64,000 nt of DNA from a virus (taxonomy: Duplodnaviria > Heunggongvirae > Uroviricota > Caudoviricetes). The notes under the pieces were generated by a model that saw only the letters and a program-made list of their open reading frames with translations, searched no databases and had not been told where the DNA came from. Position 1 is the stretch's first letter, and the number at the start of each line of letters is the position of its first letter. Shown here one piece after another: positions 4,326 through 45,215 of the stretch. The position numbers and the translations under genes were made by a program. The stretch lies in the IMG/VR virus record IMGVR_UViG_3300044712_000823, positions 1 to 64,000 of that record; one strand, written 5' to 3'.

Positions 4326-5639
4326 ATGAATTTACTGGGACGAAAAACATCAGAAGTGATGGGAGAGAAAAGCGCCGGAATGTATTCCGGTGTTTCTGAT
4401 ATTGCGTCCAACATGATGAAATCTTTGAGCATTTCTGAAGAAACACTTTCTAAAATTTCCGAAAAATATCAAGACAATCTAAATGCTGAAGAAAAGTTAA
4501 AGACAAAACATCATAAAGAAATTCTTCGTGTCATTTTAGCTGCAACAAAAAAGAAAGCTAAAGGACAAAAACGAATAGAAGAAAACGTTGAAAAAGAGAA
4601 AAAAAGCCAGAAAGCAGAAACTAAAAAAACAGAAGCTAAAACAGAAGAAACTGCTAAGCCTGCTGAAGCACCACCTCCTCCTAAACCTGAGCCAGCACCT
4701 AAGCCTGAAGTTGCACCGAAACCGACACCTGCACCTAAACCTGAGCCTGCTCCTAAACCGACTGCAAAAAGAGTTGAGGAAGTTAAACCTACTCCGAGTT
4801 TAAAGCCTGAAGTTCCAAAGTCAGTAACAACTGCCACTAAAGTTTCAACAGGAGGACTCTTAGCTGCCGCTGCAATGTCAGTGAGAGGTGAAACTGGTGG
4901 CAAATCGTTAGATACTGTTAGTACAGATGCGAAAAAAGTCGGACAAGTTGTACAAAATGATCCGAAACCTGGCGTCAGTTCATATGGCATTTTTGGCTTG
5001 AATTCTGGAGGTTCTGTACAGAATTTTGTAAAAGATAATCCTCAATTTGGTCTATCTGAATTGCAACCTGCATCGAAACAGTTTGATGAAAGATGGAAAA
5101 ATCTAGCCATTGAAAAGACACAAGAATTTTATCAAGCACAAATTAATTGGTACAAAAAGTATGTATATGATCCAGTTAAAGCGGATATGCAGAAATTGTT
5201 ACCACAACATTTAGGTTCCGATGACGGTGTTGTGACCTATATGGCGGATAGACGTAATCAGATGGGTAAATTGTATGAGGGTGAAGCCATTACTTATGCA
5301 AAGAATTCAAATACACCAAAAGAATTCATTGCAAAAATTGCAGAACATGATTCAAGCGAGAGTTATATCAAGAAAGCTTTTCCAACATACTTGAAAACTC
5401 ATGGCGATAAGAATATACCAGGTTTACAGAATCGAGTTCGCATCCGCGAAGAAATGTCAATAAAAGTTTCAGGTGATTTAATAAGTGGTGTTTCAAACGA
5501 AAACACGAACATGAAAAAAGATTTGCAACAAAGTTCAGGTGCAACAGTTGTTATACAACAAAACAATAACACCACATTGAATAAGCAATCTATGATTATG
5601 CAAAACAAAAAACAAGAATTAAATCCAACGATGAGATAA
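4326..5639 (+). CDS. Proline-rich repeat structural/virion protein (PAPKPE repeats).
   Basis: Long ORF with tandem PxPKPE repeats at aa ~110–150. Conserved C-terminal domain (YGIFGLNSGGS). Confidence 0.35.
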   Translation: MNLLGRKTSEVMGEKSAGMYSGVSDIASNMMKSLSISEETLSKISEKYQDNLNAEEKLKTKHHKEILRVILAATKKKAKGQKRIEENVEKEKKSQKAETKKTEAKTEETAKPAEAPPPPKPEPAPKPEVAPKPTPAPKPEPAPKPTAKRVEEVKPTPSLKPEVPKSVTTATKVSTGGLLAAAAMSVRGETGGKSLDTVSTDAKKVGQVVQNDPKPGVSSYGIFGLNSGGSVQNFVKDNPQFGLSELQPASKQFDERWKNLAIEKTQEFYQAQINWYKKYVYDPVKADMQKLLPQHLGSDDGVVTYMADRRNQMGKLYEGEAITYAKNSNTPKEFIAKIAEHDSSESYIKKAFPTYLKTHGDKNIPGLQNRVRIREEMSIKVSGDLISGVSNENTNMKKDLQQSSGATVVIQQNNNTTLNKQSMIMQNKKQELNPTMR

Positions 5640-10175: not shown

Positions 10176-10364
10176 TTTTTCCTCTGTAGTTGAACAAGAT
10201 GATGGGTTATTCTGTTACGAGGAAACCCATCGAAACCCTAGTCAGCGTTTAGGCTGCCAATGCGAACTTTTCATCGTTTGCGTTTAGTTTGATTTACTTT
10301 TAACGACTATCTGTGTCGAGTTGTCCACTTCTGTACTTGTTGCCCTGTCGAAACCATGGCTGGC

Positions 10365-10478
10365 CCATCAGAAGTATACTAAACGTGGATCGTCCCTAAA
10401 TGCTTACTGAATTCTACAGTCAGCTTAGTATACTTCTGGTGGACCAGGCGGGAGTCGAACCCGCGTCCAGAACACTTT
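10365..10478 (-). ncRNA. tRNA-like 3' fragment (T-arm plus acceptor 3' half plus CCA) next to a 14-bp inverted repeat. Possible structured RNA.
   Basis: Minus-strand reading GCGGGUUCGACUCCCGCCUGGUCCACCA. No matching 5' acceptor strand. The inverted repeat is CAGAAGTATACTAA...TTAGTATACTTCTG. Confidence 0.25.
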
Positions 10479-10542
10479 TCTAGTTGCTTCATACAACCAT
10501 AGCCGCTAGTATAGCAGCTTTTTATTTAGTTGGCAAGCGTTT

Positions 10543-11685
10543 TTACCAGGGTTTTCCTGTACCGCGAAAATTACTGAAGCTTATTTGTCCGCTTGCTGGA
10601 ATCGTGATGTTTATTATCGCACTCTTCCTAACTTTACATGTATATCCTTGTGAGGACTGTGTAAGTACCTCAAAAGAATATGTTTCACCATTCACTGTGG
10701 TCGATGAGGGTGGTGGCACATTACCAGAAAGACTCAAGTTTGCAACTATATCACCGTTCCAAAAAACTTTTCCGAATGAGGTTCCTGGAGTCGTCAATGT
10801 ATCCCAGAACATACCATATGTCAACTTTCCCGATGCTGCTGATTGGAACTGGTCAATGGAACCCAACAATAAAGTGTTGGAAGAAACGGAAGATAAATTT
10901 GCAGGTAAGCTTATGGTTGAGGGTGTTACGAATGTGCCACCACGGTAATAACTGCTGACACTATATGGTTTTCCTGTATTACCGAAGATTGTCGCCAAAG
11001 TGTCTAGGTTTATTGTTGCATTATCGTCTATTCTATTTCTAAGCCAAATTATGGCCTCCATATAATTTCTAGAATCCGACGACGATTGATTGTACCTTTG
11101 TGGTAGAGGTGATTGAAGGTAATTTATTGAATAAAAATTTCCGTTTGATGAATTTGTGTAACGAGTGCCAAAGGAAGTCAGTGAGCGACTGATTGATCCT
11201 GTGTGTGAGAATACAAAAATTGAATTTGAATTTGAAAGTACAAAGTTATTTGCGGTCGAAGTCGTCGGCTCACCCATACTGAAAATAAACAAATCTCTAC
11301 ATTTCACTAATGTTTTATTTTCTATGAGACCATCTGTCGTAGAATAGACTGTAGGACACACTAATGATGCACCGGAAGGTGGAATTGCAGCTAATGCTAC
11401 AGCCGCATTGTCTGCATTGATTTGTCCAACATCTATACCTTTAGAAGCAACATTTATTAGTGTACCAACTGTTGTTCCCGGAGAACTCGGATCGAAACCG
11501 TTTGCAATCAATGCAATCGTTCCATTACCAGATGTGGTAATTATCGCACTTCTTGCATTGATAAATGTGTTCGATCTGACCAAAAAGTCACCAACAACAG
11601 TTATGTTTCCTGTTATAATAACGTCATTATTGGTTCTCAGATTGTAGTTGGTGTATGTTCCACCTGTTATGGTAGTTGTTGCCAT
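10543..11685 (-). CDS. Tail-fibre/adhesin-like protein (Ser/Thr/Asn-rich).
   Basis: Composition and repeats typical of receptor-binding fibre proteins. Confidence 0.4.
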   Translation of the reverse strand: MATTTITGGTYTNYNLRTNNDVIITGNITVVGDFLVRSNTFINARSAIITTSGNGTIALIANGFDPSSPGTTVGTLINVASKGIDVGQINADNAAVALAAIPPSGASLVCPTVYSTTDGLIENKTLVKCRDLFIFSMGEPTTSTANNFVLSNSNSIFVFSHTGSISRSLTSFGTRYTNSSNGNFYSINYLQSPLPQRYNQSSSDSRNYMEAIIWLRNRIDDNATINLDTLATIFGNTGKPYSVSSYYRGGTFVTPSTISLPANLSSVSSNTLLLGSIDQFQSAASGKLTYGMFWDTLTTPGTSFGKVFWNGDIVANLSLSGNVPPPSSTTVNGETYSFEVLTQSSQGYTCKVRKSAIINITIPASGQISFSNFRGTGKPW

Positions 11686-14194: not shown

Positions 14195-14493
14195 TCTCTT
14201 GCCATCTTTGTTTTATGACCTTGTTTCAAGGTGTTGCCAGGGACCGACTCTTTGATTCTATTAATAATATATTTTTCAAAGGTAGAATCAGCTTTACCTG
14301 TGCCAGGTGTACTCATGCGAGAGCCATCAGACAACATGGGTAAATCTTCTGAAGCAAACGAACGTTCAAGATGTGGATTGTTTTCCTTGAATGCATCAAG
14401 TTCAGCAATCCGCATAATATGTTCTTCGATTGCTCCTGTATCTTTGTTTCTAAATGTGTACGTTGGCAAAGTTGTGCCTCCAAATTTTGTCAA
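14188..14493 (-). CDS. Hypothetical protein.
   Basis: ORF between two HNH genes. Confidence 0.35.
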   Translation of the reverse strand: MTKFGGTTLPTYTFRNKDTGAIEEHIMRIAELDAFKENNPHLERSFASEDLPMLSDGSRMSTPGTGKADSTFEKYIINRIKESVPGNTLKQGHKTKMAREW

Positions 14494-14902
14494 TATGTTT
14501 CATAAAAAGATCAGTTGTTAATTTGTGTTTCATATAATTACAAGTAGAACAACAGGTCTTTACATTGGTATAAGTATACCCTTTTTTATTATCTATTCGA
14601 TCTAATCCGTTTATTGGAACTTTTCTACCAATTGTATCATGTAATTTACCTTCACGTAAAACTGGTTCTCCTCCACAAATATAACAATTTTTCTGCACCA
14701 ATTCCGACCATTGTTCAAATGTTAAGTCCCAAAATATATTTCTGTGATTGGGATTCGCATCACATCTTTGAGAGATAAAAATTTTGTTTAAATATGTTTT
14801 TGTTGGATCTAAAGTTTTTTCATAAACTTTTCTTGTGCTTTTTTTGTGATTTCTTTGCTCATGTTGTAAATCCATAATTACTCCTAAATTGGTATGTAAC
14901 AT
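14450..14902 (-). CDS. HNH endonuclease.
   Basis: CYICGGEP...NGLDRIDNKKGYTYTNV...CCSTCNYMK. Confidence 0.5.
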   Translation of the reverse strand: MLHTNLGVIMDLQHEQRNHKKSTRKVYEKTLDPTKTYLNKIFISQRCDANPNHRNIFWDLTFEQWSELVQKNCYICGGEPVLREGKLHDTIGRKVPINGLDRIDNKKGYTYTNVKTCCSTCNYMKHKLTTDLFMKHIDKIWRHNFANVHI

Positions 14903-14924: not shown

Positions 14925-15512
14925 TTATAGATTAAATACGATAGAAATTCTAGGGTCAACGGATCTATTTGGCACAACTTCGTGATACAACCATGCTGGC
15001 CACATTAGTAATAGACCTGGGTATGGCTGATAATCGAAATGAGATTGTGCATACCAACTATCTTTATCTTTGACATGGAAGAAATAGTCGAAAAAATCCC
15101 GAAACGGTTGATTAGGTAGGAACCTGATGGGTGCAGAACCAGGAGGTGTCTGTAAATAGAAAATACCTGAAATTGTACACTGTGAATGTACATGCTTGGG
15201 ATGGTTACTACCTTCTTTGAAATAGTTCAAGAAGAAATATGGATTGAATTTTGCTCCGTATGGTTCAAAACCTTGTGCAGCTAAGAATTCGTGACCCTTG
15301 TTGATAATGAAATCTCCAAACCCTTGGTATTTTGGATCATTTCTAATATCGATGCCTGTACCATGAGTTGTTCTACCATTGTAGTAAAATGAATCGTTGG
15401 TTTGTTTAGTGTCACTTTCAAAATAATCTTTTACGACAGGCAGAAGAATGTCTGCCCAGTTTTTATGTTCTTCAACACCAACCACCGATGGGAATAATGA
15501 ATCAAGTCTCAT
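14925..15512 (-). CDS. 2OG-Fe(II) oxygenase.
   Basis: HVHSQCTISGIFYL...PIRF. HxD...H architecture. Confidence 0.6.
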   Translation of the reverse strand: MRLDSLFPSVVGVEEHKNWADILLPVVKDYFESDTKQTNDSFYYNGRTTHGTGIDIRNDPKYQGFGDFIINKGHEFLAAQGFEPYGAKFNPYFFLNYFKEGSNHPKHVHSQCTISGIFYLQTPPGSAPIRFLPNQPFRDFFDYFFHVKDKDSWYAQSHFDYQPYPGLLLMWPAWLYHEVVPNRSVDPRISIVFNL

Positions 15513-15771
15513 GAGGTAAAAACACTTTCAATTTTTCGTACTTAGCATCAATTGCTTTATGAATATCTTCATCTGTAATATTTATATCTGTTTCATCAAC
15601 CAATACAGAGATGAGAGCCAAAACATCACCAATTTCAGTGATTAGTGCCTGTTTGTTAGTTACGCCTTGCCATTCCGCATTCAATCCAAAACGATTGATT
15701 TTGGAAATGGCTTGAATGACTTCTGCACATTCTTCAGTCAATACACCCATAACCTGTTTAAGATCACGCAT
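15502..15771 (-). CDS. mazG: MazG-like nucleotide pyrophosphohydrolase.
   Basis: EECAEVIQA...EIGDVLA motifs. Confidence 0.7.
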   Translation of the reverse strand: MRDLKQVMGVLTEECAEVIQAISKINRFGLNAEWQGVTNKQALITEIGDVLALISVLVDETDINITDEDIHKAIDAKYEKLKVFLPHET

Positions 15772-15862
15772 AAAAATCCTTTAAATAATATAAATAGGTG
15801 TGGATCACGGTACGCCAATACCCATCCACTCTATGTCCATATTCTATAACAGGAGACACAGC

Positions 15863-16507
15863 TTGTCAAGTATATATACAACGAAAAGAAAAAGAAGAAC
15901 CGTAAATTACCGCAAAATTTACGAACAACATTTTGGTCCAATTCCTTATGATGAATTTGGAAGAAGATATGAAATACATCATATTGATGGCAATCCAAAT
16001 AACAACGACATAAAAAATCTTAAATGTGTTTCAATAAAAGAACATTATGAAATACATTATAAACAAAAAGATTGGGGTGCTTGTTTATTAATTGCGAGAG
16101 CGATGGAAATTACACCAGAAGAAAAGAGAACCTTAGGTAGACTTGCGGCGATTAAGCGTTTAGAAGAAGGTAGCCACAATTTTCTGAATAATGATTCAAA
16201 CGAAAATAGAGTTAAAGCAGGAACACACAATTTTCTTGGTGGTGAAATAGGTGGAAGAACAAGCCGCAGGCGAGTAAAAGAAGGAACTCACATACTTTTA
16301 GGTGGTGAAGTTCAGAGAAAACAATTACTTGACGGTAAAAATAAACTTGTTGGCGGTGAATTGCAACGAGAAAGTGCTAAGAAATTATTGCAGGAAGGTA
16401 GACACCATTCACAAAAAGTGAATGAATGTCCACACTGCAATAGAGAAATTTTAGGTAATGGATTTTATCGCTATCACGGCGATAGATGTAAGTTCAAGAA
16501 AGATTAA
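15863..16507 (+). CDS. HNH homing endonuclease. Proposed TTG start after AGGAG.
   Basis: HHIDGNPNNNDIKNL. Leader shared with the GIY-YIG gene at ~20.9 kb. The ORF track extends to 15800. Confidence 0.65.
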   Translation: MSSIYTTKRKRRTVNYRKIYEQHFGPIPYDEFGRRYEIHHIDGNPNNNDIKNLKCVSIKEHYEIHYKQKDWGACLLIARAMEITPEEKRTLGRLAAIKRLEEGSHNFLNNDSNENRVKAGTHNFLGGEIGGRTSRRRVKEGTHILLGGEVQRKQLLDGKNKLVGGELQRESAKKLLQEGRHHSQKVNECPHCNREILGNGFYRYHGDRCKFKKD

Positions 16508-16968
16508 TCAATTCTTTCCTTGTATTGACGAATGGGTGTGTATGGGAAAGTGATAGGAACTGCACTATCACCATTAGTGAAATACGATTTGTATTTTTTA
16601 CCGGTTTCTTTATCTGTGTACCAATCATAAAAAATAATTCCTTCAGAATCATATGCTTGGCCATTGAATCTGTCAGCCTGTTTGAATATGTGACTGCATC
16701 GTTTATTTTGCATACAGTAGCCGTGGTCTACCCACTCCCAATCTTCACCAGTCAGTGGTGTAATAGGCTCAAACTTGGCCAACTTTTCAAACAAATTAAT
16801 AGCATATGGTGCAGTGGATCCAGAATGTCCTTCTTCGTCAAATATTTCAATCAACTTCAATACATGTTTGCAGATCATCTCCTGCATTTCATCATCGAAT
16901 TTTCCATTCTCGTCAGTCCAACCTGCGGCTCTAAATTCAGCCTCTGCATGTTTAATTAAATTACTCAT
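16504..16968 (-). CDS. Hypothetical protein.
   Basis: ORF. Confidence 0.35.
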   Translation of the reverse strand: MSNLIKHAEAEFRAAGWTDENGKFDDEMQEMICKHVLKLIEIFDEEGHSGSTAPYAINLFEKLAKFEPITPLTGEDWEWVDHGYCMQNKRCSHIFKQADRFNGQAYDSEGIIFYDWYTDKETGKKYKSYFTNGDSAVPITFPYTPIRQYKERID

Positions 16969-17216
16969 TCTTCTTTCCTTATTTCAGTTGCACCACATTG
17001 ATTACAGTCAAAGATTGGATAGCCAACAGGGTTCGTATCACGAAAATTCCAGTGGTGACCCACCTTCTCACACCGTTCACGCAATTCTTTCTTTGCCGGA
17101 TAATAAACAGTCTTGTCATATTCATCCATCAACTCTGACATTTTCTGCCGGCGCGCTCGTTCAATCAGTCCCTTTTCTTTCCAGATTTTGGTTGATTCTT
17201 TTTCTTCATCATTCAT
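16965..17216 (-). CDS. Hypothetical protein (CxxC).
   Basis: ORF with overlapping stop/start. Confidence 0.3.
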   Translation of the reverse strand: MNDEEKESTKIWKEKGLIERARRQKMSELMDEYDKTVYYPAKKELRERCEKVGHHWNFRDTNPVGYPIFDCNQCGATEIRKEE

Positions 17217-17512
17217 GTAATTAATCCATATTCTTTCAAGAGTTGACGAAAATCATTTGTCATAGTAGAACCAGTTTTTGCAATAAAAAGTTGAAGTATA
17301 ATCTGATCTATGTCATTTCTATCTCGCCAAGTTCCGACAAACCAACCAGTGGGATTTGAAAAACCCTTCAGTGTAACAACATCAGAAACATAAATGAAAT
17401 GTGACCTTGTTATTGAGGTGTTACCACTAGTATACATGTCCGACATTTTCTGAATGATATAATATTCAGCTTCTCTCGCATTGCCTGCAATTATAAAATA
17501 TTTGTCAGACAT
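17213..17512 (-). CDS. Hypothetical protein.
   Basis: ORF. Confidence 0.3.
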   Translation of the reverse strand: MSDKYFIIAGNAREAEYYIIQKMSDMYTSGNTSITRSHFIYVSDVVTLKGFSNPTGWFVGTWRDRNDIDQIILQLFIAKTGSTMTNDFRQLLKEYGLIT

Positions 17513-18053
17513 TGTACCACTCTGGGATTGGTCGTGAATTTACTTTACCTTGCCAAGTAGCAAAGCCGCGTTTTGAAATGTTGTAATAGTTTCGGTAAGA
17601 TGCAAGAGAATCTCCGGGAACTTTTACATCATCAGGCATTGCAGGTGTAGGTGGGAAGAATTCACCTTTGGCCATATTGTGTGGAGGCACATACAGAATA
17701 TCATGCAGACGCGCACATGCATGGATTTTACCATAACGATAGGTGTATTCGTTGCACAGGTGATACCACATGCGATAGAGCCAATTGTAGTTGGTTCGAT
17801 TTGCACGGCACCAGATAGCCGACGGATGATTGATGTGAGAAGCTTTCATTAGTTGTTTCTCACGTTCATCATTTAGACGCCAACGTTTGATACGCCGACC
17901 ATTTTCAGTTAGTTCGGTGTATTCTTCGCCATCAAGAATGCGGTGTGCCGTAGACATGAGTTGTGCATACTCAATAATCATTTTGACAACGTGCTTAGAC
18001 AGATGCATTTCTGCACAAGTTTTTGCGTCAGGATCAAGGTAAAAAATATTCAT
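17505..18053 (-). CDS. Hypothetical protein.
   Basis: ORF. Confidence 0.35.
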   Translation of the reverse strand: MNIFYLDPDAKTCAEMHLSKHVVKMIIEYAQLMSTAHRILDGEEYTELTENGRRIKRWRLNDEREKQLMKASHINHPSAIWCRANRTNYNWLYRMWYHLCNEYTYRYGKIHACARLHDILYVPPHNMAKGEFFPPTPAMPDDVKVPGDSLASYRNYYNISKRGFATWQGKVNSRPIPEWYNV

Positions 18054-18068
18054 GACAATTCAATTTTG

Positions 18069-18632
18069 TTATTCAAAAAGTGTATTTTCTGCTGGACCTA
18101 ATGTACGATAAACGGTTGCTTTACTCACATTAAATTTTTCCATGATTTCTCGTATCATATAGCCATCATTTCTCATTTGTTTAATTTCTTCTATTTGCTG
18201 TTCAGCCAACACTTTTTTTCTTCCAAATTTTATTCCTCGTTTTTTTGCCGTTTCTATACCATCAGCTTGATTTTCTTTACGTAAATCATTTTCAAATTCG
18301 GCAAAAACACTCAACATATTAAAAAGCAAATTTCCCACAGGTGTAGTTGTGTCGATGTTTTGGTCAGTAACAATAAGTGCGATTTTTCTTTCTTCAAGCA
18401 TGTGTTTAATGTTTAACAAATCTCTCACATTTCTTGCCAGTCTGTCAATCTTCGTAACACATATGGTATCGCCTTCACGCACAAATTTCATCATTTTTTT
18501 GAATTGTGGTCTATTCATGCTTATTCCAGATACACGCTCTTTGAAAACTTTTTCACAATCTTTTAATTTTTCCAATTGTGCATCTAAATTTTGACCGACA
18601 CTTGAAACCCTAGCATAACCAATTTTAGACAT
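18069..18632 (-). CDS. Small serine recombinase (resolvase/invertase family).
   Basis: GYARVSSVGQNLDAQ catalytic motif. C-terminal HTH. Confidence 0.8.
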   Translation of the reverse strand: MSKIGYARVSSVGQNLDAQLEKLKDCEKVFKERVSGISMNRPQFKKMMKFVREGDTICVTKIDRLARNVRDLLNIKHMLEERKIALIVTDQNIDTTTPVGNLLFNMLSVFAEFENDLRKENQADGIETAKKRGIKFGRKKVLAEQQIEEIKQMRNDGYMIREIMEKFNVSKATVYRTLGPAENTLFE

Positions 18633-18637
18633 TTCTA

Positions 18638-18838
18638 TTACCTCAATTCTGGTTCTTTTTCAAAACATTCAAAACAAACTGCATCATACTTTGGTCCCAT
18701 GCAGGTGGCAATAGCACCGTCGCAATATCTACACAAAATAAATGCATGTGTCACAATTTGATCCTTGCGGGGACCATACAATTTATAGAAACCCTCGTCA
18801 CGTTCAATGTAACCGATGTGTTCTCTTTCTTCATTCAT
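18638..18838 (-). CDS. Small Cys-rich protein.
   Basis: CRYCDG...CFECF. Confidence 0.3.
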   Translation of the reverse strand: MNEEREHIGYIERDEGFYKLYGPRKDQIVTHAFILCRYCDGAIATCMGPKYDAVCFECFEKEPELR

Positions 18839-19116
18839 ATTTTTTGGATTTGTATGCGTTCTACATCTGTCCAGGTTTGAACTACAGTTCCTTCTCCATG
18901 GTTATCATGTTCCCAGACTCTATATTGCAATCCAACTTTGGTAATATTTCCGTTTTCGTCCAAAAATTCTGCCACACGAAAATCATAAGAAAGAGGCTTA
19001 GCAAACACCACCGACGACTGTGGAATTTCGGCTCTAAAAGAGCCACCTGGCTGATATGGCAAAGGTGGCATATTGAACGTGGTCGTTACAATTTGTGTGT
19101 TTAATTTTGTTGTCAC
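18835..19116 (-). CDS. Hypothetical protein.
   Basis: ORF. Confidence 0.3.
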   Translation of the reverse strand: MTTKLNTQIVTTTFNMPPLPYQPGGSFRAEIPQSSVVFAKPLSYDFRVAEFLDENGNITKVGLQYRVWEHDNHGEGTVVQTWTDVERIQIQKI

Positions 19117-19913
19117 GGTACAATATATCCTTTAACTTCAAGGTCTTCCACATCCATTTCAAAATAGGGATAAAGTATTGTAGCAGGAACCGGATCAATT
19201 GTCAATACCCGGTCTCGGATATTATCATGCCATTTACTTTCCAACTCAAAATAACGCCATTTGTACAGGAAATTAGCCCAGGACAAACCACGGTATTGAT
19301 GTGAGCGACCTTGTTCGATGTATCTTTCATCGTTAGGTTCCGGTCTCTTGGCTAGATGTAGTGTGGTATTCCAAACACGACCGTGTGCAAAATCATTGAT
19401 GGATGAACGATCTGGTAAATATTTGACAGCACGGAGGAAATAATCACCTTCACCGAAGCCATAGTGGAATCTTTCATCCCACATTCCAATTTTTTTGATT
19501 GCATTTGGTGTGTATGCACATACCATATCGCCCGCATCATCCGCATAGAAGTCCTGTTTTTCCATGACCGCAAGAAGTCTGATAATCCAATCTCTTTCCC
19601 AAAGAGTGTCGTCTTGTGCAGTGACGACAATATCGGCATCAGGATTTTTTAAATCACGAAAGCCATGAATGATGGCGGTATTCCACATACGCGCCAACAT
19701 AGCAGTAGCAAAATCAGGTTGTGCTGCATTGTGTATTACTTTCACATGCGCCTGATAAACCGGATTGATTGAAAAGTTAGAATGATTGTTGATTACATTC
19801 ACATGTATATCAACTCCTTGTGGTAAATGAGAAAAACCCTCAAATAGAGTCGTTAGATTTCTATCGAGGGCTTTCTCATCTTGCCAAGTCAAAATATAAA
19901 TTTTGATTTTCAT
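19113..19913 (-). CDS. Putative glycosyltransferase (GT-A-like, DxD?).
   Basis: VVTAQDDTLW. Weak. Confidence 0.3.
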   Translation of the reverse strand: MKIKIYILTWQDEKALDRNLTTLFEGFSHLPQGVDIHVNVINNHSNFSINPVYQAHVKVIHNAAQPDFATAMLARMWNTAIIHGFRDLKNPDADIVVTAQDDTLWERDWIIRLLAVMEKQDFYADDAGDMVCAYTPNAIKKIGMWDERFHYGFGEGDYFLRAVKYLPDRSSINDFAHGRVWNTTLHLAKRPEPNDERYIEQGRSHQYRGLSWANFLYKWRYFELESKWHDNIRDRVLTIDPVPATILYPYFEMDVEDLEVKGYIVP

Positions 19914-20063
19914 ATCACCAATGACGTATTACGCCAGCTATAATAAACATGTTTGTAATTATGTAACTTGCAATGATGATGGTTCGAATGATTGCAATTT
20001 TATCTGCTTCACTGTCATCGTTGCTGGCCTTTTCACCTAGTGATTTAGCCCATAGTCTCCACA

Positions 20064-20351
20064 TTATAACATCCTTATAAGTCCAATTGTGTCAATTGTT
20101 GTCAACAAGATATAGTTAGCCAACATGCCAAATGATTTGCGAGTAAATGCGGCCCAAGCATACAAAGCACACCCAGTAATCCAAATAGGATAGAGTGTAA
20201 GCAAAGGAGGGTTGGGTACTGTGAGAGCCATGGTGATAGCACAAGCGATACTAATGCCCCAAGCAAGCAACTCAACACAAAAACGAAAACGATTAGAGTT
20301 CCAGTCACTACGTATCCAGTCAATAGTTGGCTTCAAAATATCAGTTAGCAT
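20064..20351 (-). CDS. Membrane protein.
   Basis: Three predicted TM segments. Confidence 0.35.
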   Translation of the reverse strand: MLTDILKPTIDWIRSDWNSNRFRFCVELLAWGISIACAITMALTVPNPPLLTLYPIWITGCALYAWAAFTRKSFGMLANYILLTTIDTIGLIRML

Positions 20352-20557
20352 CGACCATCCATGTCTACTTCTTTTCTTTCATTGGTGTAATATTCTTTCA
20401 CGGGAACAATTTCCAATTCGCCGTCAATTTCATAACCACAACCACTCAAGAAATTTTTGAAGTAACCCAACACATCATCAAGTTGGTCTACTTCAAATTC
20501 CATTGTAGTCTTAGGACTCCCAAAGCCTACGAAACTTGATTCAAATTTAAATTTCAT
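20345..20557 (-). CDS. Hypothetical protein.
   Basis: ORF. Confidence 0.3.
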   Translation of the reverse strand: MKFKFESSFVGFGSPKTTMEFEVDQLDDVLGYFKNFLSGCGYEIDGELEIVPVKEYYTNERKEVDMDGRC

Positions 20558-20874
20558 TTTTTCTCACCAAAAACGGGAACTTCCAATTCAACGCCTTTGC
20601 CTTCTTCTTGTGGTTTTACCACCGACACAGGTTTATCTTTTTTAGGGAAACGTTTCTGAATATCATCAGCAGTTACAGTTTGCATTGCAAATTGTTTGAA
20701 TTGTTCATAATCTTCTTTAACCTTCAGTGTTCTAACACCATTTACGGATGCAGAATCATTGAAACTTAACACACAACCGCCTGCAATCAGTGGTGCAATT
20801 TCCAACACCATATCCAAGTTGATGATGACTTTACATTTTTTTTCTTCACTTGTAATTTCCACAAAAAGTGACAT
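20554..20874 (-). CDS. Hypothetical protein.
   Basis: ORF. Confidence 0.35.
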   Translation of the reverse strand: MSLFVEITSEEKKCKVIINLDMVLEIAPLIAGGCVLSFNDSASVNGVRTLKVKEDYEQFKQFAMQTVTADDIQKRFPKKDKPVSVVKPQEEGKGVELEVPVFGEKK

Positions 20875-20969
20875 AATTTTTCTCCAGAGTAAATAAATAA
20901 AAGGTGCCAGTCACGATGCGTCAACATCCACTGGCTCTATGTCTAAGATTTTACAACAGGAGACACAGC

Positions 20970-21509
20970 TTGTCAAGTATATATTCAACAAAATTTTATG
21001 TCTATGCCTACCTGCGTGAAAACGGTACACCTTATTACATCGGTAAAGGTACCGGCAAAAGAGCATGGAGACACTTTAAAAAAGAAATAAAACCACCGAA
21101 AGATAAAAGTAAAATAGTCATATTGGAAAATAATTTGACTGAAATTGGTGCCTTTGCATTAGAAAGGAGATATATTTTTTGGTATGGCAGAAAAGATAAA
21201 AATACTGGCATACTGAGAAATAAAACTGACGGCGGTGACGGTGCTTCTGGTAGAAAATTTAAAATGACAGAAGAACAAAAAAGAAAAATATCCAACGCCA
21301 AAAAAGGTAAAATACCACCATGCATTTTTATCCGGCGTTCATATGAAAATTCCGGAAACCCAAAATCCAAAAAATGTATATCACCTGATGGAAGAGTTTT
21401 TGATTGTGCTAAAGAAGCCGCAATTCAAATGAATATTGGTGTCAAGGCATTACAAAAAAGATGTAGAAATGGTGCAATGGGTTGGTCATATGTAATTGAA
21501 AACAACTAA
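20970..21509 (+). CDS. GIY-YIG homing endonuclease. Proposed TTG start after AGGAG.
   Basis: FYVYAYL...YYIGKGTGKRAWRH motif. The ORF track begins at a GTG at 20904. In-frame ATG at 20916. Confidence 0.65.
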   Translation: MSSIYSTKFYVYAYLRENGTPYYIGKGTGKRAWRHFKKEIKPPKDKSKIVILENNLTEIGAFALERRYIFWYGRKDKNTGILRNKTDGGDGASGRKFKMTEEQKRKISNAKKGKIPPCIFIRRSYENSGNPKSKKCISPDGRVFDCAKEAAIQMNIGVKALQKRCRNGAMGWSYVIENN

Positions 21510-32667: not shown

Positions 32668-33047
32668 TTCAATTCAATCCTTGCACAGAATTTATCTTTC
32701 CAACTACGATAAGCCAGACGCACAAAACCAGGTTCACTGTCTTGCATTTTAACTTTACCTGCCATAGTTCCGAACATGATACCAAAGCCGGCGACCACAC
32801 CAATTAAAATTTGTGATGCTGTATTCAGTTCATGTCCCCAAAATAGCCAACTGAAAATGTTGGCCACTGAAACCAATACCCATATTGTAAGTGATACCCC
32901 ACCAGCCAAAGACAACAGAAATAGTGATGTACCAAAAATTACATAACGAATATATGAACAAATATCAGTTGCAGAATATACACGTTCTTCGCCGAAATTG
33001 GCCAACCAATAGTGCCACGATTTTCGCTTCAATTCAATTGTTTTCAT
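32664..33047 (-). CDS. Membrane protein.
   Basis: TM helices. Confidence 0.4.
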   Translation of the reverse strand: MKTIELKRKSWHYWLANFGEERVYSATDICSYIRYVIFGTSLFLLSLAGGVSLTIWVLVSVANIFSWLFWGHELNTASQILIGVVAGFGIMFGTMAGKVKMQDSEPGFVRLAYRSWKDKFCARIELK

Positions 33048-33307
33048 TATTCAATTCCAAAATGTTTTTTGATTTTATTGACAGAATCTGATTTACAATT
33101 AAACCATTCATCACGGTATGAATCTTCAGGTCCTGCCAGCCTGATACATTCTCTGATAACTAGTTCGGCGAATTTTCGTTTATTGAAAATTTCTTGTGGA
33201 TAATCGTAATCGAACTCCACAACATCATGTGCTTTTCGAATCAAATCTTTAATATTTTCATTCATTATATTGTTTTTGCCTTTCTTTTTGTTCTTCAAAA
33301 TGTTCAT
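33047..33307 (-). CDS. Small paralogous-family protein (FAELVIREC...HFGIE).
   Basis: Shares motifs with six ORFs at 38.2–41.2 kb. Confidence 0.45.
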   Translation of the reverse strand: MNILKNKKKGKNNIMNENIKDLIRKAHDVVEFDYDYPQEIFNKRKFAELVIRECIRLAGPEDSYRDEWFNCKSDSVNKIKKHFGIE

Positions 33308-35858: not shown

Positions 35859-35887
35859 TTTGTGTCTTTCGCTGAATCAATGCATGA

Positions 35888-35916
35888 ATTATGGCGGATG
35901 GAAGTGGATCTGGCAA
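35888..35916 (-). promoter_or_regulatory. Sigma70-like early promoter (family copy P1): TTGCCA-17-CATAAT.
   Basis: Minus-strand reading ...TTGCCAgatccacttccatccgcCATAAT. Upstream conserved stem-loop 35932..35950. Confidence 0.55.
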
Positions 35917-35974
35917 TGTGGAGCAATAGTTCTCCAGCACTGCGCTGGAGTTAGAACCTTTTACTTACAAAATC

Positions 35975-37331: not shown

Positions 37332-37363
37332 CGTTCACTCCGTGTTAATCAATCAATGCATGA

Positions 37364-37392
37364 ATTATGGCGGACGGACGCCAATTTGTCAA
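37364..37392 (-). promoter_or_regulatory. Sigma70 consensus early promoter (family copy P2): TTGACA-17-CATAAT.
   Basis: Minus-strand reading TTGACAaattggcgtccgtccgcCATAAT. Stem-loop 37407..37427 upstream. Confidence 0.6.
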
Positions 37393-37438
37393 TGTGGAGC
37401 AATAGTTCTCCAGTGCCGTGCTGGAGATTGCTAAAGTA

Positions 37439-38012: not shown

Positions 38013-38203
38013 GTGTAGTAAAAAGTTCTCCATCCTGCCGGTCAACTATTCATCATAACCCTTACCAATACCAATATAAATTCCAAACTTAATTAAGTCA
38101 ATTTTAATTGACCACTCATGTTCGCAGTTATGACCAATAAAAATACCCAAATTAATATAATTAGATTCAAACCAGTTGATGCGAAACTTTTCACCACTTC
38201 CCA

Positions 38204-38425
38204 TTATTTGGCTCCGAAATGATTTTTAATTTGAATTGCAGCGTGTTTATAGTAATTGTGATTGCCATTGGTCTTTTCGTGCATATCCAATAGTTTACCA
38301 CAACATTCATCAATAATCAACTCGGCGAATTTCTCCAATTCATAATCATAGAATTGCCAAACTGGTGGAATATGTTTTTTGGTGCCCATGGCGTGCTCGG
38401 CGAGTTCATAAATTCGTTCATTCAT
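38204..38425 (-). CDS. Small paralogous-family protein (MNERIYEL...FAELIIDEC...HFGAK).
   Basis: Family motifs. Confidence 0.5.
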   Translation of the reverse strand: MNERIYELAEHAMGTKKHIPPVWQFYDYELEKFAELIIDECCGKLLDMHEKTNGNHNYYKHAAIQIKNHFGAK

Positions 38426-38570
38426 TTACTTTTATCTTTCGAAAAATCGAATATCATACCTTTGAGAAAACCCTGCTTGAAAGTACCGCTCGGCGCAAAT
38501 AACATATAACCTATAATCAATCCCTGAAACGTACCGAGAAAGTAGAGAAAAGCCATCATAAATGCTTCCA

Positions 38571-38777
38571 TTATTCAACTCCGAAATGTTCTTTTAGATG
38601 ACGTTCTTCAATAATACCAAAACTTTCTACGCCGCGCTGATGCAAATGCATTGCACATTCCTTGATAATCAATTCGGCAAATTCTTGTGGGTCGAAATAA
38701 GTATGCAATTTCAATACATGGAGTGTATTCCTATCTCCACCGGCTTTAAAGAATAGTTCATAAATTCGTTCATTCAT
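38571..38777 (-). CDS. Small paralogous-family protein.
   Basis: N-terminal 34 aa identical to 40961..41188. Confidence 0.5.
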   Translation of the reverse strand: MNERIYELFFKAGGDRNTLHVLKLHTYFDPQEFAELIIKECAMHLHQRGVESFGIIEERHLKEHFGVE

Positions 38778-38952
38778 TTGAATAATCCTTTACTGTGGGA
38801 ATATCTTTCCATTCAGACCATTGCATATTCTTCATAGTATCTGGAAATGGACCATTACCAGCATATACGTTCATATCAATTTGCTGCCTTTGTTGCAATA
38901 CCTTTTCAGGACCATCCCAACCTTGGCGGATAAACCAACGTAATTCAACCAT
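38770..38952 (-). CDS. Hypothetical small protein.
   Basis: ORF. Confidence 0.3.
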   Translation of the reverse strand: MVELRWFIRQGWDGPEKVLQQRQQIDMNVYAGNGPFPDTMKNMQWSEWKDIPTVKDYSNE

Positions 38953-39194
38953 TATTCAACTCCAAAATGTTCTTTGATCTTAACTGCAATGTCTGCCAAG
39001 TAGTAATATAACGTGCCTTCATCATGTAACTCACTGCCTTCGCTGTGTATATGAGCAATGTTAGCACATTCCTTGACAATCAACTCTGCAAACTTTTGCT
39101 CAAATGTGCGAATATATGAAACGCCGTGAGTTTCACATTCTTTATGTGCGTAGTTTTGCGCCTGTTCGGACAATTCTTTTATCCGTTCATTCAT
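38952..39194 (-). CDS. Small paralogous-family protein.
   Basis: FAELIVKEC...HFGVE. Confidence 0.5.
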   Translation of the reverse strand: MNERIKELSEQAQNYAHKECETHGVSYIRTFEQKFAELIVKECANIAHIHSEGSELHDEGTLYYYLADIAVKIKEHFGVE

Positions 39195-39200
39195 ATTATA

Positions 39201-39494
39201 TCACCACGCCAAAGCAAAAGCATAGAAACCGTTGGTATTATCACCTCCAGTTTCAATATGAACCCGCCGATTGCCACAATCACAACGGCGATTCCCGACT
39301 TGCCAGCCTGCACATTCTATATCATTTTCACCCAAATAATCATTGCAGTTTTGACCGTCAAATTCGACAAAATCATCGCCAGATTGTGCAATAAATGCAT
39401 CAATAGCTTCTTGCTGCGTTTTGTAATTCATTATATCACATACTCCAATAAGTTTCAGACGCGGGATTGCAACACCATGGAGTATCCTCGGCAA
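39201..39494 (-). CDS. Hypothetical Cys-rich small protein.
   Basis: ORF. Start uncertain. Confidence 0.3.
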   Translation of the reverse strand: MPRILHGVAIPRLKLIGVCDIMNYKTQQEAIDAFIAQSGDDFVEFDGQNCNDYLGENDIECAGWQVGNRRCDCGNRRVHIETGGDNTNGFYAFALAW

Positions 39495-39684
39495 TGAGAA
39501 TATACTCCTGGGACATTAGATTCCGCACCAGTTTCATACCTTCAACGGGATTTTGTTTCTGCCACTCCCACAGGTCATCAATCTTATTGAAAATGGGACC
39601 GAAAGTAATTCCAGTCACATTATCAACACATTGCCAGCCGCCAGCAACCGAAAGACACGCAAGATCAATCGCGTTAGCACTCAT
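39436..39684 (-). CDS. Hypothetical small protein.
   Basis: Start set at the internal Met after the upstream stop. Confidence 0.3.
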   Translation of the reverse strand: MSANAIDLACLSVAGGWQCVDNVTGITFGPIFNKIDDLWEWQKQNPVEGMKLVRNLMSQEYILIAEDTPWCCNPASETYWSM

Positions 39685-39720
39685 TATATTCTCCAAAAGT
39701 TTCACCAAGTTAACGACCAC

Positions 39721-39915
39721 TCACATACTGCAAAGATTATCCATCTCATTAATGAAAATGAGATATGCCGAACTCATCATACAGGACAATTCACCTGCTT
39801 TATATTCAGTTTCCAGTTTCTCAATGCAATCTAGCATAGAGTTTGCGCCAATGTCAGTGCCATATGCCATGACCAAATCAATTGCTTCGCGGGTCGTCAT
39901 AATCGTTTCATTCAT
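39721..39915 (-). CDS. Hypothetical small protein.
   Basis: ORF. Confidence 0.3.
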   Translation of the reverse strand: MNETIMTTREAIDLVMAYGTDIGANSMLDCIEKLETEYKAGELSCMMSSAYLIFINEMDNLCSM

Positions 39916-40124
39916 TCTTCAACTCCAAAATGTTTACGTGCAACAAATTGAACATGCCAGCCTTTCATAGGCCCATCTTCATTAGCACCAACCCAAGGAC
40001 ATACTTCAGGGAGAAACTGTTCATATTCACGAATAATCAATTCTGCAAATCGCACGGCATCAAAACCAGTTTCAGATTCACACCGCTGCATCATTTCAAG
40101 AATAACGCCATTCGTTTCAATCAT
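39912..40124 (-). CDS. Small paralogous-family protein.
   Basis: FAELIIREY...HFGVEE. Confidence 0.45.
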   Translation of the reverse strand: MIETNGVILEMMQRCESETGFDAVRFAELIIREYEQFLPEVCPWVGANEDGPMKGWHVQFVARKHFGVEE

Positions 40125-40142
40125 TTATTCAATTCCAAAATG

Positions 40143-40349
40143 TTATTTGATACCAAATTCGAACATAATTTCGTCGGCAATATCCTCATAATCCTCAACA
40201 GATACGCCTTTATTCGAACCGAAATAAGAATAACCTTCCATTTCTCGGGTATAACCATGAATAATGGAAATAATACGGTCACGAATAGCCTTTTCCTTAT
40301 CAGAAATCTCAGTATATTCGGGAATATGAGAATACCAACGAGCAGACAT
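40143..40349 (-). CDS. Hypothetical small acidic protein.
   Basis: Ends FEFGIK. Confidence 0.35.
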   Translation of the reverse strand: MSARWYSHIPEYTEISDKEKAIRDRIISIIHGYTREMEGYSYFGSNKGVSVEDYEDIADEIMFEFGIK

Positions 40350-40363
40350 AACATTACCTCCAA

Positions 40364-40645
40364 TTACCGACGATAAACTGCAAAAGTAACTGCATCACTT
40401 TTCAGACAGGTAGAATGAGCATTAATCACGGAGTAATTAATACCACGGATAATACCTGCTTTAGTTTGAACACGATACCGACTTTCACCTTTATTATAAC
40501 GATGAGAACGGGGACCACGATAACGCACCTTAATTTTAACGCCGTCAATTGCAAACAGGCGTTTAATCTCATCAAGATATTGCATGGGGATACCATGCAT
40601 AATGGACTGACGATCAGAACCAGACTTATATTGTAGAATGTGCAT
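40364..40645 (-). CDS. Basic small protein (possible nucleic-acid binding).
   Basis: K/R-rich. Downstream of P4. Confidence 0.4.
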   Translation of the reverse strand: MHILQYKSGSDRQSIMHGIPMQYLDEIKRLFAIDGVKIKVRYRGPRSHRYNKGESRYRVQTKAGIIRGINYSVINAHSTCLKSDAVTFAVYRR

Positions 40646-40681
40646 TTTCTTTTTCCAATCAATTACCGAACCAATAAAGAC

Positions 40682-40709
40682 AGTATAACAGAACCAGGGG
40701 AAATGGCAA
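40682..40709 (-). promoter_or_regulatory. Early promoter family copy P4 (TTGCCA-16-TATACT).
   Basis: Minus-strand reading TTGCCAtttcccctggttctgtTATACT. Confidence 0.5.
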
Positions 40710-40755
40710 TGTAGATCGGAAGTAGTCCATCCGTCCGGTCAAGTTCTCGGCAGGT

Positions 40756-40983
40756 TCATTCTTCAACTCCAAAATATGTGTATACTGCTTCTTCCATACT
40801 GGGACCAAATTGCATTCCTGCTCTTGCGACTATCAAAGTTTCTTTGATAATCAACTCGGCGAATTTACTTTCAAATGCTTGAATATATGAAACACCATAT
40901 TTGTCGTTTTGTTCATGTGCATAGTTTTGTGCATCATAAGAAAGTTTTTTAATTAGTTCTTCATTCATTTTCTTCAATTCCAA
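40756..40983 (-). CDS. Small paralogous-family protein.
   Basis: FAELIIKE...YFGVEE. Confidence 0.45.
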   Translation of the reverse strand: MELKKMNEELIKKLSYDAQNYAHEQNDKYGVSYIQAFESKFAELIIKETLIVARAGMQFGPSMEEAVYTYFGVEE

Positions 40984-41188
40984 ACTCTTTTTCCATACTC
41001 AAACAAACCTCACGGGCTTGATTTCGTGTCAGTTCCTTGTGGGGATATTTGTAAACAAAGTCGGAACATTCTTTGATAATCAAATTGGCGAATTCTTGTG
41101 GGTCGAAATAAGTATGCAATTTCAATACATGGAGTGTATTCCTATCTCCACCAGCCTTAAAGAATAGTTCATAAATTCGTTCATTCAT
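40961..41188 (-). CDS. Small paralogous-family protein.
   Basis: About 100 bp near-identical to 38680–38777. Confidence 0.5.
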   Translation of the reverse strand: MNERIYELFFKAGGDRNTLHVLKLHTYFDPQEFANLIIKECSDFVYKYPHKELTRNQAREVCLSMEKEFGIEENE

Positions 41189-41191
41189 TGT

Positions 41192-42109: not shown

Positions 42110-42134
42110 ACAAAATCTCCTAATCAATGAAGAC

Positions 42135-42163
42135 AGTATAACAGAACGTAAGGAGAATGGCAA
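42135..42163 (-). promoter_or_regulatory. Early promoter family copy P5 (TTGCCA-17-TATACT).
   Basis: Minus-strand reading TTGCCAttctccttacgttctgtTATACT. Confidence 0.5.
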
Positions 42164-42546
42164 TGTAGAGCAATAGTAGTCCATAGAAGAGGTCAACTAT
42201 TGTCCAGTGTATGGGAATGCATGGGGAAGAACCAGGAATGGAATAGGAGATGATTGAAACCAAAGGTAGTAACCAGTGTAGCAAGAACCATGCGTGGATT
42301 GAAAATGAAAGTGCTATTTATTGCGTGCCTACCGTGCGTTGTCGCGGGACCTGTCGCAGGTATGGTGTAGCACCTTAGTCTTAGTTGCTGTCTGCGAGCC
42401 AGGTTTTTCCTCAACCAGCCACTCTATCACAATCCACAGCGGTTGGCAATAGGTTTCCTCTCAGAACCTCAGAGAACCATAGAGCCAGGCTATAGCATAG
42501 TGGATTTCCGACCAATAGCAAAGTAAATTTTCTTTCACCCAGCTGG

Positions 42547-44716: not shown

Positions 44717-44744
44717 TTGCCATTTCCTCCGGTTCTGTCATAAT
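44717..44744 (+). promoter_or_regulatory. Early promoter family copy P11 (TTGCCA-16-CATAAT).
   Basis: TTGCCAtttcctccggttctgtCATAAT. ATG 8 nt downstream (leaderless). Confidence 0.5.
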
Positions 44745-44751
44745 CCACTCC

Positions 44752-44949: not shown

Positions 44950-44974
44950 ACTCTTGAAAACGAAAGGTTACAAA

Positions 44975-45187: not shown

Positions 45188-45215
45188 CCAATCCGGTCAA
45201 CTATCCGACGGATGG

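Follow-up and report, generated by a model that had tools for sequence, protein, structure and literature searches.

A widespread 5′ cassette of free-standing homing endonuclease genes in uncultured large phages, with a conserved structure that probably lies on the antisense strand

We analysed a 64,000-nt stretch of viral DNA (positions 1 to 64,000 of the IMG/VR record IMGVR_UViG_3300044712_000823, Caudoviricetes; hereafter the window) in which an HNH and a GIY-YIG homing endonuclease gene (HEG) begin with closely similar leaders. These leaders are copies of a widespread 5′ cassette that occurs in a clade of uncultured large phages. The cassette combines a promoter-like box, a Shine-Dalgarno (SD) sequence and a start codon with two adjacent covarying hairpins (P2 and P3, or P2′ and P3′ as read on the antisense strand), it is widespread and appears to be undescribed, and its conserved RNA structure would be antisense to the gene that follows. 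It is highly probable that the cassette is portable, under selection and specific to endonuclease genes, and probable that the selected structure lies on the antisense strand. The best joint reading, to which we assign a probability of about 0.5, is that of a portable HEG expression cassette that would also encode a cis-antisense RNA, whose function we infer from sequence comparison.

The two window leaders have approximately 95 bp in common, from the TATAAATA and ATAAATA boxes (15789 and 20893, respectively) to about codon 8 (15886 and 20993), and MAFFT aligned 15786-15886 with 20889-20993. An earlier note on this DNA had read an alignment of about 85 bp at this place, and computation recovers it: in addition to the MAFFT alignment, the 30-mer AACAGGAGACACAGCTTGTCAAGTATATAT occurs exactly twice in the window, each time on the + strand (15848-15877 and 20955-20984), compared with 0 matches expected by chance and none in 100 shuffles. 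A repeat search of the window returned the pair as family D18 (46 nt, 91% identity). Identity between the leaders is 66% in the 5′ part, from the box to P2, and 87% in the 3′ part, from TCTAT to codon 8. At both loci AGGAG (15851-15855 and 20958-20962) stands 7 nt 5′ of an in-frame TTG (15863 and 20970), exactly as the note had it, and translation from this TTG would give the N-termini MSSIYTTK (HNH) and MSSIYSTK (GIY-YIG). Within P2, both bases differ between the two leaders in four of the six outer pairs and in two inner pairs. The covariance model R1, which was trained on relatives with the window sequences excluded, matched the window only twice, and these matches are the two leaders (63.3 and 59.8 bits; E-values of 4e-15 and 4e-14 with filters off). 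The features of both loci are as follows.

15789..15796, + strand: TATAAATA box of the HNH leader, similar to a T4-type late promoter (consensus NTAAATA; sequence match), 3 nt 5′ of P2; its − strand reading is the U-rich tract 3′ of P2′
15800..15829, − strand: hairpin P2/P2′ of the HNH leader, with outer stem GTGGAT/ATCCAC, inner stem GGTA/TACC, loop CGCCAA and single-base bulges (R1 alignment, covariation)
15831..15861, − strand: hairpin P3/P3′ of the HNH leader, with arms 15831-15838 and 15854-15861 (R1 alignment, covariation, asymmetry of G.U versus A.C); its large loop contains the − strand −10 hexamer, and on the + strand the SD AGGAG (15851-15855) overlaps the arm
15841..15869, − strand: sigma70-type promoter-like site, TTGACA (15869-15864), 17 nt, TAGAAT (15846-15841), 11/12 matches, facing the MazG-like gene start at 15771
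15863..16507, + strand: HNH_3 homing endonuclease gene (Pfam), predicted TTG start, MSSIYTTK; the start is homologous to the ATG of relatives
20893..20899, + strand: ATAAATA box of the GIY-YIG leader, 6 nt 5′ of P2 (sequence match)
20906..20935, − strand: hairpin P2/P2′ of the GIY-YIG leader, with GCCAGT/ACTGGC, GATG/CATC and loop CGTCAA (R1 alignment)
20937..20968, − strand: hairpin P3/P3′ of the GIY-YIG leader, with arms 20937-20944 and 20961-20968 and SD AGGAG at 20958-20962 (R1 alignment)
20948..20976, − strand: sigma70-type promoter-like site, TTGACA (20976-20971), 17 nt, TAAAAT (20953-20948), 11/12 matches, facing the ORF start at 20874
20970..21509, + strand: GIY-YIG-type homing endonuclease gene (Pfam and motif), predicted TTG start (MSSIYSTKFYVYAYLRENGTPYYIGKG...), with an ortholog at locus L001

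Because degenerate patterns based on structure were searched and not exact k-mers, the element could be recognised as a family. The exact 30-mer has no match in IMG/VR, and a 19-mer of the core has a sole match there, at the orthologous locus L001, where the same leader precedes an orthologous GIY-YIG gene whose product is 68% identical to that of the window gene. IMG/VR relatives of both endonucleases carry a recognisably homologous leader, and a degenerate pattern derived from these relatives matched at least 119 IMG/VR contigs, with the 6-bp and 4-bp stems perfect in all pattern matches listed except that at L056. A second pattern that did not require the box gave at least 120 matches, and R1 found 117 copies in 99 of 100 loci. 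Because two to three leader copies often lie within a few kb in these contigs, endonuclease genes with the cassette appear to cluster. Three copies each are present at L026 (3600, 8279 and 9440) and L019 (3003, 5807 and 8433), on one strand per locus, and 14 further loci have two or three. As for the further copies in the genome and in related phages that the earlier note had considered, R1 and the pattern scans place two in the window and many in other phages. In cellular genomes (bacterial and archaeal, 596 Gb) the element was matched once, and among GenBank phages it was not found. The covariance models of Rfam 15 gave nothing that overlaps the elements in the window (15700-21100) with E-values up to 10 and no match at nine typical loci with E-values up to 5. 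A known RNA family, a ribozyme or an intron fragment was rejected on this absence of Rfam matches and on the position of the genes, which are free-standing between open reading frames (ORFs). We found no description of the element in the literature or in Rfam.

Unless another sample size is given, the counts that follow refer to the distinct elements among the matches listed (n = 150-152). Distinct ORFs of at least 60 codons follow 138 of 152 elements, and in a subset of these ORFs endonuclease domains were recognised by Pfam: HNH_3 (17), HNH (14), HNH_4/5, GIY-YIG (10), SegE_GIY-YIG (4), NUMOD3 (47) and DUF559/Vsr-like (1). The remaining 14 elements are followed by a truncated or degenerate ORF, lack a start where one is expected or are interrupted by the contig end. 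This classification was based on the Pfam scan, and clustering by BLAST was dropped because common NUMOD repeats merged all of the ORFs. The ORFs after the cassette comprise at least three catalytic superfamilies. The proposal of a portable module common to unrelated free-standing endonucleases, which the earlier note had drawn from the window pair, holds for at least 138 ORFs in more than 120 IMG/VR phage contigs and is considerably wider than that pair. In 59 loci, the HEG was antisense to both neighbours in 37 and co-oriented in 10. Because the window GIY-YIG leader and that of L001 are 90.5% identical and the flanking coding DNA is only 62-73% identical, the leader appears to be under purifying selection.

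In HEG orientation, the cassette is approximately 85-95 bp long and consists of NTAAATA, a spacer of 3-6 nt (mode 5), P2, TCTA(A/T), P3, (N)CAGC, the start codon and TATTTA(T/C). The first box reads ATAAATA in 119, CTAAATA in 17 and GTAAATA in 9 of 151 elements, and NTAAATA is present in about 96% of the elements from the scan that did not require it. P2 has a 6-bp outer stem, C-R-C, a 4-bp inner stem, a loop YGNNAR and a further Y paired with the R; P3 has a stem of 4-6 bp, with the SD in the loop and the 3′ arm. Because the stop codon of the upstream ORF lies at most 7 nt from the box at co-oriented loci, the module can be said to begin at the box. ATAAATA occurs 4 times in the window (15579, 15790, 20893 and 42315) compared with 17.5 ± 4.8 expected, all 100 shuffles having at least 4, and two of these four sites are those of the leaders; this depletion is consistent with a functional signal that is avoided elsewhere. 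Four elements (L129, L130, L148 and L154) are without NTAAATA and have GTCAACAAAAAT instead, approximately 12 nt 5′ of P2, whose other strand, ATTTTTGTTGAC(A/T), has a U run that overlaps a TTGAC(A/T) −35-like hexamer, in terminator-then-promoter order.

The post-start motif TATTTA(T/C), which is NTAAATA on the other strand and which we term the mirror box, is present in 114 of 151 elements. In 91 of 151 it lies 5 nt after CAGC, that is, 5 nt from the base of P3′. It occurs in three reading frames (108, 21 and 15 elements, as in ATG ACT ATT TAT, ATG TAT TTA and ATG ATA TTT ATA, respectively), and because it is kept in all three, we conclude that it is constrained at the nucleotide level. The exact complementarity of ATAAATA and TATTTAT would also permit a helix that encloses the SD and the start codon as in T4, and RNAfold drew such a helix for L004 and L020. 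This closing helix found no support, since the motif variants do not covary and TACTTAT or TATCTAT simply break it.

When an antisense-oriented alignment of 129 sequences was folded with RNAalifold, two adjacent hairpins were obtained. Across the 19 pairs, 98.5% of 2449 cells are paired, and compensatory changes occur in 15 of the 19 pairs (500 double-change cells), including 10 of the 11 pairs of P2. The covariation was 0.616 compared with 0.224 for shuffled alignments, none of 500 shuffles being as high, and slid controls reached at most 0.14. Because G.U pairs on one strand appear as A.C on the other, the non-Watson-Crick cells distinguish the strands. The 85 distinct P2 sequences contribute 850 stem cells, of which 828 are Watson-Crick; 19 are A.C or C.A, hence G.U when read antisense, and a single cell is G.U in the sense reading. 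If the bulge pair is counted as well, antisense G.U and sense G.U cells number 54 and 1, respectively. The loop-closing pair is C.A in 79 of 85, which is U.G on the other strand. The same asymmetry is found in P3, where 113 variable cells are antisense G.U and 7 are A.C, and TCTA and CAGC, both invariant, can pair only in the antisense reading (CUG/UAG, with a G.U), which extends P3′ to 8-9 bp. On that strand P3′ reads CUG...UAG, with an anti-SD in its loop.

Folding energies point in the same direction. In 149 of 150 elements the fold of the antisense strand is the more stable (−18.2 versus −12.6 kcal/mol), and the mean for P3 is −5.7 kcal/mol on the antisense and −2.2 kcal/mol on the sense strand. 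A structure of the sense strand that occludes the ribosome-binding site, which the earlier note had considered, would be weak in view of this value for P3 and of z-scores of only −0.2 to −1.35 for whole sense-strand leaders. The antisense strand also has a U-rich tract after P2′, with a mean of 6.5 T in nt 3-12 compared with 3.4 on the sense strand and at least 6 T in these 10 nt in 121 of 151 elements. Because the strand asymmetry is equal for divergent (n = 73) and co-oriented (n = 44) upstream neighbours, it is a property of the cassette and not of the 5′ untranslated region (UTR) of a neighbour.

The window leaders belong to a subclass with an enlarged P3 loop that also contains L001, L030, L041, L109, L111, L037, L054, L061 and L177. 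Its members have a degenerate mirror box (TATATAT) and encode proteins that begin with M-S-S-I-Y. The three best sigma70-type matches in 7.8 kb of the window include both leader sites (11/12 each, − strand). Their −35 hexamer is the complement of TGTCAA, which runs from the second base of the start codon through codon 2 to the first base of codon 3, and their −10 hexamer is located in the extra sequence of the P3 loop. Equivalent sites are found at L001, L030, L041, L111, L037, L177 and L061, with TTGACA and the −10 hexamer kept and with different spacers. By eye, no convincing MotA box or sigma70 promoter was found on the antisense strand of the main family, and only the long-loop subclass has one; in 23 of 151 elements a sigma70-like promoter stands just past the U tract, in hairpin-then-promoter order. 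Thirty identical bases would thus encode an SD, a start and five codons on one strand and a putative promoter on the other. Because the start-codon region doubles as an antisense promoter-like site, the identical MSSIY is probably a by-product of this overlap at the nucleotide level and not a feature of the proteins.

Both window leaders share a derived TTG/AGGAGAC variant that was not seen in other members of the subclass, which suggests exchange or common capture within the window lineage. With regard to the exchange of modules that had been suggested in the earlier note, portability across endonucleases is well supported by the family, and exchange between the window pair is a possibility to which this shared variant points.

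In our proposal, the cassette would supply its gene, on the HEG strand, with the NTAAATA box, the SD and the start codon after CAGC. In T4, late transcription starts approximately 6 nt after the TATAAATA box. Because of this analogy and of the depletion of ATAAATA in the window (4 versus 17.5), we read NTAAATA as a putative T4-type late promoter, from which the HEG mRNA would start at the base of P2. The mirror box would be a convergent promoter 5 nt from the hairpin base, and a two-hairpin RNA of about 70 nt would start from it at the base of P3′ and end at P2′ and the U tract. In the window subfamily, the sigma70-type site would replace the mirror box, and the RNA would start just before P2′. 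Provided that the mirror box is a promoter, the antisense RNA of the main family would be complementary throughout to the HEG 5′ UTR, the SD and the start codon. It would bind the HEG leader, the P2 and P3 loops of which are exactly complementary to it, and may restrain translation or stability, as IS10 RNA-OUT and other cis-antisense RNAs do. Recombination inside the conserved leader would move the cassette between endonuclease ORFs.

That the product is a regulatory antisense RNA we hold tentatively, at a little below even odds. The shared regulatory target that the earlier note had offered as an alternative is still plausible, and the selected structure is probably on the strand opposite to the sense strand that was then considered. 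A stronger version, namely that a complete antisense sRNA gene (promoter, two hairpins and terminator) is nested in the HEG leaders and, since the endonuclease genes of one genome have this leader in common, acts in trans on all copies in the genome and on those of co-infecting relatives as multicopy inhibition, appears rather unlikely on present evidence.

Several points weigh against the joint reading. Both promoters and the terminator are matches to consensus sequences, and no gp55-like late sigma factor turned up in the window, where no search was aimed at one. The mirror box is not universal, since about 25% of the elements have TACTTAT, TATATAT or TATCTAT, and in its commonest frame it could partly mirror Ile-Tyr codons. 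P2′ is interrupted by two bulges and separated from the U run by an A-C spacer, which would make it an atypical terminator, and a simple terminator scanner made no call. The predicted sigma70 start (about 15834 and 20941) lies inside the 3′ arm of P3′; the window transcript would lack the 5′ arm of P3′, hold only P2′ and not cover the SD, yet the P3′ pairing is conserved there. A promoter that fires into a terminator-like hairpin would also be odd if it were meant for expression of the neighbour. Moreover, the preference for G.T over A.C would equally fit a folded single strand of DNA.

One rival is a leader that acts on the sense strand only, with a late promoter, a P2 that stabilises the 5′ end of the HEG mRNA, a weak SD hairpin P3 and the start codon, the antisense asymmetry having no function of its own. 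The fixed distance of 3-6 nt (mode 5) between NTAAATA and P2, by which a T4-type start would fall at the stem base, is well accommodated by such a leader, as is the finding that P2 still folds on the sense strand (mean −9.1 kcal/mol), and an endonuclease that has been inserted antisense to its neighbours, as in 37 of 59 loci, would require a promoter, an SD and a start codon. It does not account for the 54 A.C cells against 1 G.U that P2 shows on the sense strand, for the 113 antisense G.U against 7 A.C cells of P3, whose mean on the sense strand is −2.2 kcal/mol, or for TCTA and CAGC, which pair on the antisense strand only, and we regard it as distinctly improbable. Alternatively, the antisense hairpins and the U tract could form a terminator or insulator, similar to promoter-early stem-loop (PeSL) cassettes when taken together with the sigma70 promoters, that ends or stabilises a transcript running in the host direction through the HEG, with the neighbour restarted and no regulatory RNA involved. 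This would agree with the orientation of most HEGs antisense to both neighbours, the U-rich tract 3′ of P2′, the sigma70-like promoter just past this tract in 23 of 151 elements, the four elements that keep ATTTTTGTTGAC(A/T), with the U run overlapping TTGAC(A/T), and no late box, and the outward-facing sigma70-like promoter of the window copies; T4 endonuclease genes with promoters for downstream genes and PeSLs as terminator/promoter cassettes are precedents (PMC2988022, PMC4122927). However, the structure is equally kept with a co-oriented upstream neighbour (n = 44), where there is nothing to terminate or restart, the window promoter lies upstream and not downstream of the hairpin, the element occurs only beside endonuclease genes (2 of 2 in the 64-kb window), and the fixed spacing of the mirror box and the anti-SD loop of P3′ are left unexplained. 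We consider a terminator or insulator unlikely.

A recent duplication or gene conversion within one genome, without function, would explain why the window copies share the derived TTG and the AGGAGACACAGC variant where other members of the subfamily have AAGGACACAGC(C/T)CATG, and this common variant makes some intragenomic homogenisation or common capture likely. As a sufficient explanation, duplication is refuted by the more than 150 distinct copies with compensatory changes in other phages, by the compensated stem changes that distinguish the window copies themselves and by the higher conservation of the leader than of the coding flanks between phages, and we give it almost no credence. Very improbable, in our estimation, is a folded single strand of DNA that, somewhat like integron attC, has extrahelical bases and serves as a strand-specific site of recombination or recognition, and that captures or exchanges endonuclease ORFs. 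Such a site would fit the strand-specific tolerance of G.T, the two conserved single-base bulges, the sharp ends of the module at both boxes with a co-oriented upstream stop at most 7 nt away, its occurrence with unrelated ORFs and the serine recombinase gene (18069-18632) between the two copies. On the other hand, no recombinase was consistently linked to the element in the window, where this was looked at, the element stands at the ORF's 5′ end and not its 3′ end, and functions at the RNA level account for the promoter-like boxes, the SD and the U tract alike.

Several known systems resemble the cassette that we propose in part. A late promoter combined with a hairpin that sequesters the ribosome-binding site is found at T4 I-TevI, I-TevII, I-TevIII and segB and at Aeh1 mobE (PMC2988022). 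These leaders likewise have a TATAAATA-type box directly 5′ of a phage endonuclease gene and a leader RNA structure that restricts a potentially harmful nuclease. However, in T4 and Aeh1 the promoter is located within a single hairpin, the other arm of which pairs with the SD and closes the read-through early RNA only, whereas here the box is outside P2 and P3, the pairing of box and post-start motif does not covary and the sense SD hairpin is weak. In addition, the T4 and Aeh1 genes are co-oriented inside an early or middle operon, whereas the genes described here are mostly antisense to their neighbours and the selected structure is probably on the other strand. In metagenomic 'fractured genes', conserved hairpins with TATAAATA have also been reported 5′ of GIY-YIG and Vsr-like endonucleases that are free-standing (Dassa et al. 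2009, PMC2677866). These are metagenomic phage-like loci at which different endonuclease families share a 5′ UTR hairpin and a late-promoter motif, as in our case. Of the loci of that report, which also include nrdA-5 and DnaE-1, identity was rejected for gp41-1: of 50 gp41-1 split-intein loci recovered, 26 were searched with R1 and none matched. The one gp41-1 locus that was read (L195) has a single stem with TATAAATA in the loop, unlike the present two-hairpin element.

PeSLs are mobile cassettes of T4-type phages (PMC2839356, PMC4122927). They too are small promoter/stem-loop cassettes that recur in a genome and act as recombination points for the shuffling of unrelated ORFs. According to their descriptions, by which we set them apart here, PeSLs have an early promoter at their core and stand before ORFs of many kinds in hyperplastic regions. 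The present element, by contrast, is tied to endonucleases, has two copies in 64 kb, is bounded by late-type boxes and contains two covarying hairpins; the window − strand does have a sigma70-like site, a hairpin and a U tract, in promoter-then-hairpin order. For an antisense RNA opposite a free-standing phage endonuclease gene, the precedent is CfrI of cyanophage S-PM2, an RNA of approximately 225 nt that lies opposite such a gene and psbA and is reportedly co-expressed with the gene (Millard et al. 2010, as summarised in PMC2984593). CfrI is longer than the RNA proposed here, links the HEG to psbA and is a feature of a single locus. In IS10, RNA-OUT and RNA-IN are made from convergent overlapping promoters at the 5′ end of a mobile-element gene, and the former is a short stable antisense RNA that covers the SD and the start. 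By analogy with RNA-OUT, the antisense RNA proposed here could act in trans on other copies (multicopy inhibition). The two share no homology, and the present element has two hairpins instead of one and putative promoters of the phage late type or the sigma70 type.

Regarding the window genes themselves, the product of 15863-16507 matches Pfam HNH_3 (8e-12). That of 20970-21509 matches NUMOD3 above the cut-off (4.9e-05) and I-TevI_DNA-bd and GIY-YIG weakly, below their cut-offs, and a FYVYAY...PYYIGKG motif is visible. The two different catalytic folds that the note had assigned are accordingly retained, with HNH_3 identified by Pfam and the GIY-YIG type by weak Pfam matches together with the motif. 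The TTG of both genes aligns with the ATG of more than 130 relatives directly after the invariant CAGC, and the nearest members of the subfamily have ATG TCA AGT ATA TAT at this position; TTG in place of this ATG is found in the window copies and in L001. Because of this homology, the prediction that TTG is the start codon of both genes and that they share the N-terminus MSSIY, as also proposed in the note, is supported.

Both genes are on the + strand and antisense to every neighbour, the neighbours including a MazG-like gene (15502-15771), a 2OG-Fe(II) oxygenase, a Tad3-like gene, a serine recombinase and others. The Tad3-like gene is an anti-Thoeris Tad3 homolog (16504-16968, − strand; Pfam PF25185, 7.7e-35) immediately 3′ of the HNH gene and convergent with it. 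The serine recombinase/resolvase gene between the endonuclease genes (18069-18632, − strand; Resolvase 2e-41 and HTH_7) is located in an otherwise early-gene-like region of a lytic-type phage. A 150-aa ORF (14450-14902, − strand) with cysteine and HNH-like motifs (CYICGG...GLDRIDNKKGY...CCSTCNYMKH) and no Pfam match may be a third endonuclease-like gene, without the leader and on the other strand from the two genes described here. The phage also encodes rIIA, rIIB, ribonucleotide reductase, a CobS-like gene and a transfer-messenger RNA (tmRNA). In megablast and blastn searches against GenBank phages no close cultured relative was found, and rIIA is only 30-46% identical to any. The tmRNA gene (10191-10550, − strand) matches the Rfam models beta_tmRNA (136 bits) and tmRNA_permuted (127 bits). 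The related contig L085 likewise has a tmRNA (400-826, − strand), a few dozen bases from a leader copy (864-910).

The repeat search returned further families elsewhere in the window. Five copies of a 56-73-nt repeat (TTGCCAAATCCTCCAG.CCTGTCATAATCCATTCCAT..., families D1/D2), spaced by 350-520 bp in 44717-46537, seem to mark where the small − strand ORFs of a tandem family begin. Several repeat families (D4, D6-D15) are interleaved in 33039-33180 and 38200-41190, among them a 124-nt pair with 95% identity (38655-38778 and 41066-41189), and suggest an array of paralogous small genes. The 76-nt repeat D3 (35875-35950, 37351-37426 and 42122-42197), the first two copies of which are 86% identical, ends in the inverted repeat CTCCAGCACTGCGCTGGAG. 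Within a 437-aa ORF (4326-5639), an 18-nt periodic repeat (4672-4841) encodes a stretch rich in proline, alanine and lysine (KPEPAPKPE...).

Free-standing homing endonucleases are among the commonest selfish genes of large phages. How a carrier is protected from harm by such an endonuclease has, to our knowledge, been established for only a few genes of T4 and Aeh1. For metagenomic phage contigs, R1 is a sensitive marker by which free-standing endonuclease genes can be found and delimited and their true start codons located. If the antisense RNA is real, it would represent a new class of cis-antisense regulators of phages, abundant and not represented in Rfam, and both window genes would be under common control. 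Multicopy inhibition, if true, would set a genome-wide ceiling on endonuclease expression, which would explain why unrelated families have converged on one leader. One cassette of approximately 85 nt at HNH, GIY-YIG and Vsr-like genes in more than 150 loci would be a general regulatory solution and, at the same time, a concrete vehicle for the shuffling of endonuclease ORFs.

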